Positions 14,769 to 14,900 of a DNA stretch of 64,000 nucleotides are shown here, piece after piece. The stretch lies in assembly GCA_021525805.1 (NCBI GenBank), contig GCA_021525805.1_3940.1; one strand, given 5' to 3'. The DNA comes from a phage. The position numbers and the translations under genes were made by a program. Within the stretch, counting starts at the first letter, position 1. Every line of letters starts with the position of its first letter. The notes under the pieces are model-generated. The model saw only the letters and a list, made by a program, of their open reading frames with translations, was not told the DNA's origin and ran no database searches.

Positions 14769-14900
14769 ACAGAAGACCGTTTACAGCAAAAATTAAACAA
14801 TCTATTTCTCGGTAAAGAAAAGGAGAAGGTTCGATTCCTTCACTCGACAGATGTCGAGTTGGTGTAATGGTAGCACTTAAGATGATAAACAACGGTCTGG
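14769..14900 (+). ncRNA. box-element S4 carrying a circularly permuted tRNA-like module (candidate Y-RNA-like / YrlA-like RNA)
   Basis: between boxes ACAGAAGACCGT and ACGGTCTGG lie, in order, a perfect T-arm GAAGG-TTCGATT-CCTTC, acceptor 3' strand ACTCGAC, 4-nt loop AGAT, acceptor 5' strand GTCGAGT, then D-arm GTGT-AATGGTA-GCAC. Confidence 0.5.

Follow-up and report, generated by a model that had tools for sequence, protein, structure and literature searches.

The question raised by this locus is whether a phage tRNA cluster also encodes a Y-like RNA and which protein such an RNA might partner. Conservation of Ro60-Y RNA particles extends from bacteria to humans, and human Ro60 is a major autoantigen. 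To our knowledge, the partners of these particles are known in very few systems. The DNA analyzed, here called the window, is a 64,000-nucleotide stretch from a Felix O1-like phage; Escherichia phage JLBYU32 is 99% identical over the stretch that holds the element. An earlier note had described a circularly permuted tRNA-like module between two complementary boxes, with the architecture of the tRNA-mimicking Y RNAs. This element, designated Ed, spans 14769-14904 on the + strand. At least 22 tRNA genes form a cluster here (ARAGORN and Rfam), and Ed occupies part of the 432 nt that separate tRNA-Asp (14541-14618) from tRNA-Lys (15051-15127). A gene for a Ro60-like protein (12309-13724), also on the + strand, lies about 1 kb upstream of Ed.

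Read 5' to 3', Ed starts with the 5' strand of a terminal (closing) helix, AGACCGU (14774-14780), which pairs with 14892-14898. The single-stranded motif ACAGCAA (14783-14789) is invariant in the Ounavirinae and is a candidate protein-recognition element. A hairpin, UUUCU-CGGUAA-AGAAA (14805-14820), is located 4 nt 5' of the T arm and is a candidate V arm or anticodon-arm equivalent. The T arm GAAGG-UUCGAUU-CCUUC (14825-14841) is followed by a closed 7-bp acceptor-like stem (AS), ACUCGAC-AGAU-GUCGAGU (14842-14859), in which the 3' strand (14842-14848) and the loop (14849-14852) come before the 5' strand (14853-14859). A UG linker (14860-14861) with a U8-like U at 14860 leads into the D arm GUGU-AAUGGUA-GCAC (14862-14876), which is identified by sequence, minimum free energy (MFE) fold and covariation and has both G18 and G19. 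The 3' strand of the terminal helix, ACGGUCU, and the G that follows it occupy 14892-14899. Long linkers separate the tRNA-like core from the terminal helix, and the sequence carries U55, the D-loop U residues and the 7-bp AS, features that bear on tRNA-type modification (psi55 by TruB, D by DusA), RNase P cleavage or CCA addition.

RNAfold was used to predict the structure of Ed. The MFE and centroid structures both consist of the predicted T, AS, D and closing helices (-34.3 kcal/mol, z = -3.26), and a fold as good as this one was obtained in 2/200 shuffles. The T arm, acceptor strands, loop, D arm and flanking boxes listed in the earlier note are all present in the order it gave, their exact coordinates are now assigned, and the stable joint fold it called for is the one that RNAfold returns. 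The boxes AGACCGU and ACGGUCU do pair with each other as proposed, and they are probably a Ro-binding terminal helix, not the counterpart of an anticodon stem. A candidate anticodon-like helix, AUCU/AGAU, was also considered at Ed in the Ounavirinae comparison.

Neither ARAGORN nor the Rfam tRNA model (RF00005) called a tRNA at Ed, in agreement with the statement that it is not a canonical tRNA gene. A strict descriptor of the module was written as a T arm with a TTCRANN loop, a perfect closed 6-7 bp hairpin, 2 nt and a D arm with GG. It recovers the module in the Ounavirinae loci that cover the site of Ed, with the exception of the SP116 deletion variant, and had no match in five shuffles of 957 kb. 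The T/AS/D module at Ed is not due to chance. Strict-descriptor matches at four loci (L015, L054, L055 and L056) were set aside as adjacent normal tRNAs, and one at L077 was dismissed as AT-rich noise.

Circularly permuted tRNA genes in which the 3' half comes before the 5' half, with a short loop between them, occur in Cyanidioschyzon merolae and other algae. The transcript of such a gene is circularized and then re-opened to a decoding tRNA. Ed resembles these genes in that the T arm and acceptor 3' strand precede the acceptor 5' strand and D arm, so that the 3' half is upstream of the 5' half, and in its perfect 7-bp acceptor pairing. With introns allowed, ARAGORN can be forced to a tRNA from the re-joined halves that uses 14805-14820 as the anticodon arm, and the corresponding hairpin in Suspvirus has a 7-nt CUGGUAA loop. 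However, the re-joined halves give this tRNA only with a 45-nt insert at a non-canonical site, and the hairpin loop has 6 nt in the window and is GGU-like, UAU-like or replaced by another hairpin (Michonne) among the relatives. Unlike the algal genes, Ed has no conserved anticodon arm, conserved anticodon or bulge-helix-bulge motif, and its termini are predicted to form a conserved helix of the protein-binding type. In many relatives a 4-nt tetraloop closes the acceptor stem, and the closing helix and CAGCAA are also present in elements without a tRNA core. A true permuted tRNA gene is therefore a very improbable explanation of Ed. Rfam searches of the region at the gathering thresholds and at E ≤ 10 gave no match to YrlA, Y RNA, group I intron or ribozyme families; with no intron signal in the region, a tRNA flanked by a permuted group I intron (PIE) was discarded as an explanation.

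The intergenic stretch that holds Ed is kept in 252 phage records at 80-99% identity and is annotated in none of the 252. A plain MAFFT alignment of Felixounavirus, Suspvirus and Mooglevirus sequences shows no variation in the T arm, the D arm or the boxes. The acceptor-like helix takes three forms in the same alignment, each fully complementary: ACTCGAC/GTCGAGT, ACACGT/GCGTGT around a UACG loop, and ACCCTTC/GAAGGGT. Three of its seven pairs are doubly changed and 100% of the cells pair. The stem of the 14805-14820 hairpin is retained in Felixounavirus, Suspvirus and most Mooglevirus; Michonne differs. Two natural deletion variants were found. Phage warpig (L002) has lost tRNA-Asn/Tyr/Asp, and the box after its tRNA-Met is joined directly to Ed. 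SP116 (L006/L015) also lacks tRNA-Lys; its match stops inside the T arm and the 3' half of Ed is apparently lost, a pattern suggestive of T-loop recombination. The two variants show recombination at the repeated boxes and at the T loops. Individual copies of the elements are dispensable, because SP116 appears to have lost the 3' half of Ed and warpig has lost the related element Ec.

Ed is one of four tandem copies on the + strand that share the form CAGAAGACC(AA/GT)-nU-WCAGCAA ... (UU/AC)GGUCU-GG. The earlier note mentioned neither the other three copies nor the 14805-14820 hairpin. A covariance model, R1, was built with the proposed structure from six Ounavirinae sequences only and scores Ed at 161.8 bits. 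The first copy, Ea (14058-14134; 40.3 bits, E 8e-6), has AGACCAA at 14063-14069, ACAGCAA at 14072-14078, TTGGTCT at 14122-14128 and the trailing G at 14129. In Eb (14224-14292; 48.1 bits, E 2e-7), AGACCGT (14229-14235) faces ACGGTCT (14280-14286), with the G at 14287. Ec (14679-14760) has AGACCAA at 14684-14690, TCAGCAA at 14693-14699, TTGGTCT at 14748-14754 and the G at 14755. The central dinucleotide of the Ec helix is compensatory to those of Eb and Ed, AA:TT against GT:AC. The tRNA-like core is present in Ed only. Ea, Eb and Ec (~60-80 nt, all on the + strand) are weakly structured (z -0.4 to -1.8), are unannotated in the relatives, and are probably YrlB-like companion RNAs.

A stable structured segment of 150 nt adjoins Ed at 14901-15050 (+). 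It has an MFE of -57.1 kcal/mol (z -6.92), with a ~23-bp stem that closes several hairpins, and had no Rfam match. A mini hairpin within it, AGACC-CUUUAGCAA-GGUCU-G (15005-15024), is similar to a minimal helix/AGCAA site and covaries to AAACC/GGUUU in Suspvirus and Mooglevirus. The segment may serve as a cleavage site for RNase III or as a fifth RNA with a protein-binding role.

The gene at 12309-13724 (+) immediately precedes the tRNA cluster, with which it shares the strand, and encodes a divergent Ro60-like protein of 471 amino acids. In relatives it is labeled 'vWFA protein' or 'RNA-binding protein'. Pfam returned only DUF2828, DUF7788 and a weak VWA_2 match; the protein matches neither TROVE (PF05731) nor vWA_Ro60 (PF25045), and no match was obtained in PDB sequence searches with the single sequence and a profile or in an NCBIfam search. 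The Ro60 assignment rests on the predicted structure because there is no Pfam TROVE or PDB sequence match. An AlphaFold2 model (38 homologues) has a pLDDT of 89.4 and a pTM of 0.88. The 12 best Foldseek matches to the model are all Ro60/TROVE proteins, with full-length alignments at E 1e-8 to 7e-7; Xenopus and human Ro60, Deinococcus Rsr and the Thermus phage phiLo Ro60 are among them. Full-length structural matches are 1yvp, 1yvr, 2i91, 9nfa, 2nvo and 9l5y, and the next matches are isolated vWA domains with E > 2e-3. The predicted structure has the HEAT-repeat ring and the C-terminal vWA domain with a MIDAS motif that characterize the Ro60 fold, and the MIDAS residues (DxSxS, T and D) are invariant across the family. 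By the model, the 12309-13724 protein has a Ro60 fold.

The family of this protein has 2,550 database matches, and its carriers (~710 cultured phage records) include Felix O1-like, KVP40-like, P100-like, Campylobacter, Staphylococcus and mycobacterial phages. Literature searches gave only plant papers for DUF2828 and nothing relevant for Felix O1 small RNAs. The PhageMaP preprint, based on genome-wide knockouts in phage Bas63 (10.1101/2024.10.10.617714), reports that Bas63 gp130 is structurally similar to Ro60, that its deletion sensitizes the phage to the Ppl defense system, and that g130 is directly upstream of the Bas63 tRNA genes. The authors of the preprint speculate that some annotated Bas63 tRNAs might be Y RNAs and name no RNA (10.1101/2024.10.10.617714). 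Bas63 gp130 is apparently the same protein as the 12309-13724 product in a related phage. We take Bas63 to be a Felixounavirus. The RNA candidates in the window differ from those of the Bas63 proposal in that they lie outside the annotated tRNAs.

Linkage between the RNA elements and the protein family was measured across 80 viral loci that carry the family, 65 of them non-Ounavirinae. In the 65 non-Ounavirinae loci, R1 reached 68 matches at E ≤ 10, and 66 of these have the same orientation as the gene. Most of the matches abut the Ro-like gene, with best scores of 58.1 and 56.8 bits, and full-length Ed homologues were recovered in distant phages. An R1 match in L049 was set aside due to its overlap with Rfam tRNA calls. 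MAFFT failed on the distant homologues through the acceptor and D region, and Infernal iteration was therefore used. The resulting alignment of 28 significant R1 matches, A5, has 98.9% of its cells paired and double changes in 20/23 pairs, counts that are inflated because A5 was fitted to the model. None of 500 shuffles reached the observed values, and slid controls paired at 33-45%.

Double changes in A5 (28 sequences) are found in 6/7 pairs of the terminal helix, where the second pair is an invariant G:C, and in 7/7 pairs of the acceptor-like stem; four of the five T-arm pairs are doubly changed in the distant homologues. The sequence of the terminal helix is wholly different between phages with its complementarity kept, and the G after the helix is invariant in A5. 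The T-arm/acceptor/D-arm module is thus conserved in the 252 records and in distant loci, and the acceptor-like and closing helices change in a compensatory way across phages, the two properties by which the earlier note proposed that its reading be judged. These data bear on the idea that Ed is an inert relic of a tRNA gene rearrangement, a tandem duplication followed by a deletion, in a recombination-prone cluster. Recombination at repeated boxes and T loops does occur in the cluster, as warpig and SP116 show, and a tRNA origin of YrlA-type RNAs has been suggested (Chen et al. 2014, PMC4201824). Against a relic, compensatory changes preserve every helix among phages whose Ro-like proteins are only 34-47% identical, and Ed is retained throughout the 252 records. 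We consider an inert relic highly unlikely.

A regular-expression descriptor was used as a second measure of linkage (7-bp helix, 2-3 nt, HCHGCA, 30-170 nt, complementary strand and a required G). It had 75 matches on the strand of the gene, distributed over 43/65 distant loci, and 13 on the other strand; shuffles gave a mean of ~15 for both strands together. Within the tRNA cluster of the window it finds exactly Ea, Eb, Ec and Ed, and elsewhere in the window it has three matches (one +, two -), as expected by chance. The 66 distinct elements near the gene have the consensus AGRWUSS-(Y)UU-WCAGCAA(AC) ... SSAWCCU-G, in which the C, G, C and A positions of WCAGCAA are fixed by the descriptor; the UU before and the A/C after this motif are free in the descriptor yet conserved. 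The lengths of the 66 elements are bimodal (54-66 nt and ~90-135 nt). Elements flank the gene in Mycobacterium phage Krypton555, Listeria phage LMSP-25, Staphylococcus phage SEP9, Campylobacter phage NCTC12673 and Klebsiella phage KP13-26. At locus L037 the gene is followed by two tandem elements and then an intrinsic terminator.

The LMSP-25 locus is a cluster of RNA-repair and large-ncRNA genes. A ROOL RNA match (RF03087; L091 1428-1979; 88.5 bits, gathering score 99.1) lies ~1 kb upstream of its Ro-like gene, and an RtcB-type 'tRNA splicing ligase' is encoded ~1.3 kb downstream.

Weak evidence places promoter-like sites at 12240, upstream of the Ro-like gene, and at 13743 and 13834, upstream of the tRNA cluster. 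No terminator-like site was found on the + strand between 13890 and 15127. The hairpin GAGAGGGCTATTTAGCCCCTCCC (14625-14648, +) is directly 3' of tRNA-Asp, is conserved and GC-rich, lacks a T tract, and more probably serves in processing or RNA stability than in termination. The window departs from JLBYU32 at 15128-15785 (+); JLBYU32 has tRNA-Met and tRNA-Ile after tRNA-Lys. A near-consensus promoter-like site, TTGACA-17-TATAGT, is present at 15143-15171 (+), and a tRNA at 15465-15543 (+) was found by Rfam only (31.7 bits) and missed by ARAGORN.

The elements might instead be processing or punctuation signals for RNase P, Z, III or E that cut the tRNA-cluster transcript independently of the Ro-like protein. 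The position of the elements between tRNA genes in a stretch free of terminator-like sites would fit this role, and the 23-bp stem in 14901-15050 resembles an RNase III substrate. Among the determinants for RNase P is a 7-bp acceptor stem, and Mycobacterium smegmatis YrlA, which has such a stem, is cleaved by RNase P and has CCA added (Chen et al. 2014, PMC4201824). However, the elements of SEP9 and Krypton555 abut the gene without a flanking tRNA array, the nearest annotated tRNA being 1-2 kb away, and the strand and adjacency of the elements track the Ro-like gene. The conserved CAGCAA, the invariant G:C pair and the trailing G suggest recognition by a sequence-specific protein and not mere generic sites for nucleases. 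Processing signals as the whole explanation are unlikely, although processing and Y RNA roles are compatible and both may apply together. A shared transcript for Y RNAs and tRNAs is possible (Chen et al. 2014, PMC4201824).

The preferred reading, a Y-like RNA, was compared with the known families. The published layout of YrlA consists of a terminal helix with GNCGAAN0-1G, a V hairpin, a T arm, a closed AS and a D arm, and further Y RNAs without the tRNA module are found in each species (Chen et al. 2014, PMC4201824). Ed and YrlA (RF02553; Salmonella, Mycobacterium and TROVE-encoding mycobacteriophages) have in common a terminal helix formed from the 5' and 3' ends that encloses the permuted order of (V), T arm, closed AS and D arm. 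The 7-bp acceptor stem of Ed is that of M. smegmatis YrlA, and companion RNAs without the tRNA module are also found beside Ed. YrlA RNAs have been defined by their position ≤4 kb from, and in the orientation of, a gene for a Ro60 orthologue (Chen et al. 2014, PMC4201824), and a Ro60-fold protein is likewise encoded within 4 kb of Ed on its strand. The layout and, most strongly, the Ro60-fold gene 1 kb upstream support the YrlA-like reading of the earlier note.

Ed differs from YrlA in its recognition sequence and its partner. GNCGAA is absent from Ea, Eb, Ec, Ed and 14901-15050; instead of GNCGAAN0-1G, the elements of the window have WCAGCAA 2-3 nt after the 5' strand of the helix. RF02553 (gathering score 69 bits) had no match in 14600-15060 at E ≤ 10. 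Ed is a divergent YrlA variant rather than a plain family member, because it has neither GNCGAA nor an RF02553 match. The partner protein of YrlA is a Pfam TROVE protein, whereas that proposed for Ed belongs to the DUF2828/DUF7788 subfamily. Ed is further set apart from YrlA by its long core-to-helix linkers and by the four tandem copies interspersed among tRNA genes. The YrlA search was confined to genomes with an annotated TROVE protein (Chen et al. 2014, PMC4201824), and a search of this kind would leave out the Felix O1-like phage group.

Mycobacteriophage Bxz1 served as a positive control. Its gp220 protein matches both Pfam TROVE and vWA_Ro60, and RF02553 finds the T-AS-D module beside the TROVE gene (32.5 bits, under the gathering score, E 2e-4), a site at which R1 scores only 10 bits. 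Near the Bxz1 gene there are three GGCCGA-type motifs, and helix-CAGCAA elements are absent. RF02553 detected relatives of Ed at 32.5-41.4 bits (E 1e-5 to 2e-3), all under the gathering score. These R1-positive elements are in L037 (41.4 bits, full length), KP13-26 (40.1 and 32.5 bits), Krypton555 (38.3 bits), L026 (38.2 bits) and L033 (35.8 bits), and the two models therefore overlap on intermediate members. We read these results as two Ro-like protein subfamilies, each with its own RNA signature, that share one common architecture. In Bxz1 (L089 19760-20245), the gene for gp220 is preceded by 480 nt that carry no annotation but contain three tandem units. Every unit has a GGCCGA-type motif and then a GGTTA box, and the T/AS/D core, which is YrlA-like, is in the middle one. 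One long unit thus accompanies two short ones, an arrangement that parallels that of the window.

Thermus phage phiLo also has a Ro60 homologue with tandem Y-like RNAs, Yrl1 and Yrl2, adjoining the gene; the phiLo Ro60 binds both adjacent RNAs and forms ternary complexes with host PNPase (PMC12135203). Unlike Ed, the phiLo RNAs were identified by a stem-bulge-stem shape together with a CGAA motif, precede the protein gene, have no described tRNA-like domain and accompany a recognizable TROVE protein (PMC12135203). Deinococcus radiodurans Yrn1 has a T arm and an 'anticodon arm'-like 5-bp stem with a 6-nt loop that resembles 14805-14820, and it is co-transcribed with a tRNA. Yrn1 differs from Ed in lacking a full D arm and in its arm order and Ro-binding sequence.

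A tRNA shape could also serve without a Ro-like protein. Phage tRNA clusters are linked to evasion of tRNA-targeting defenses, and Ed might be a decoy that soaks up a host tRNA-targeting nuclease or tRNA-modifying enzyme. Its intact elbow (G18 G19 and a UUCGA T loop), its 7-bp acceptor stem and its place within the cluster would suit a decoy. However, Ed offers no anticodon loop to anticodon nucleases, and a decoy leaves the helix/CAGCAA module, the short forms and the tight gene linkage unexplained. We regard a decoy as improbable, somewhat more so than processing signals.

We are reasonably confident that Ed (14769-14904) is a YrlA-type, tRNA-mimicking, Y-like noncoding RNA and most likely the RNA partner of the Ro60-like 12309-13724 protein. 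The proposed association of the two rests on genomic linkage. Ed is the first concrete candidate RNA partner for a Ro-like protein family found in hundreds of phages. The RNA would consist of a 7-8 bp terminal helix with ACAGCAA 2 nt on, enclosing the hairpin and the acceptor-closed tRNA core, and Ea-Ec would share the helix and CAGCAA without the core, as YrlB accompanies YrlA. The RNAs may be co-transcribed with the phage tRNA cluster and freed by tRNA-processing nucleases, and the helix/CAGCAA module may then dock on the Ro-like ring. The tRNA-shaped module could confer nuclease resistance and serve to tether or gate a host factor that recognizes tRNA shape or Y RNA. By analogy with the Ro60-Y RNA-PNPase (RYPER) complex, this factor might be PNPase, and the phiLo complex with PNPase is a functional precedent for such a mechanism. 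RNA decay would be retargeted during infection, which could contribute to the anti-defense activity of the Bas63 protein.

A broader proposal, offered tentatively and with less than even confidence, is that 'helix + WCAGCAA' RNAs form a pan-phage class of Y RNAs that has not been described before and is recognized by DUF2828-type Ro-like proteins through a code of its own, each phage having a long tRNA-mimic and short forms. The RNP would be an anti-defense or RNA-decay-hijacking device whose tRNA-shaped module recruits a host tRNA-binding enzyme or PNPase and is possibly RNase P-cut and CCA-ended. The same RNA signature adjoins the protein family in phages of Proteobacteria, Firmicutes and Actinobacteria, which suggests that Rfam and phage annotation pipelines miss a widespread RNA class. 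Specific unannotated RNAs with defined helices and a mutable, conserved CAGCAA are now pinpointed as partner candidates, and the question of the Ro60-like protein's partner is now directly testable in a tractable E. coli phage.
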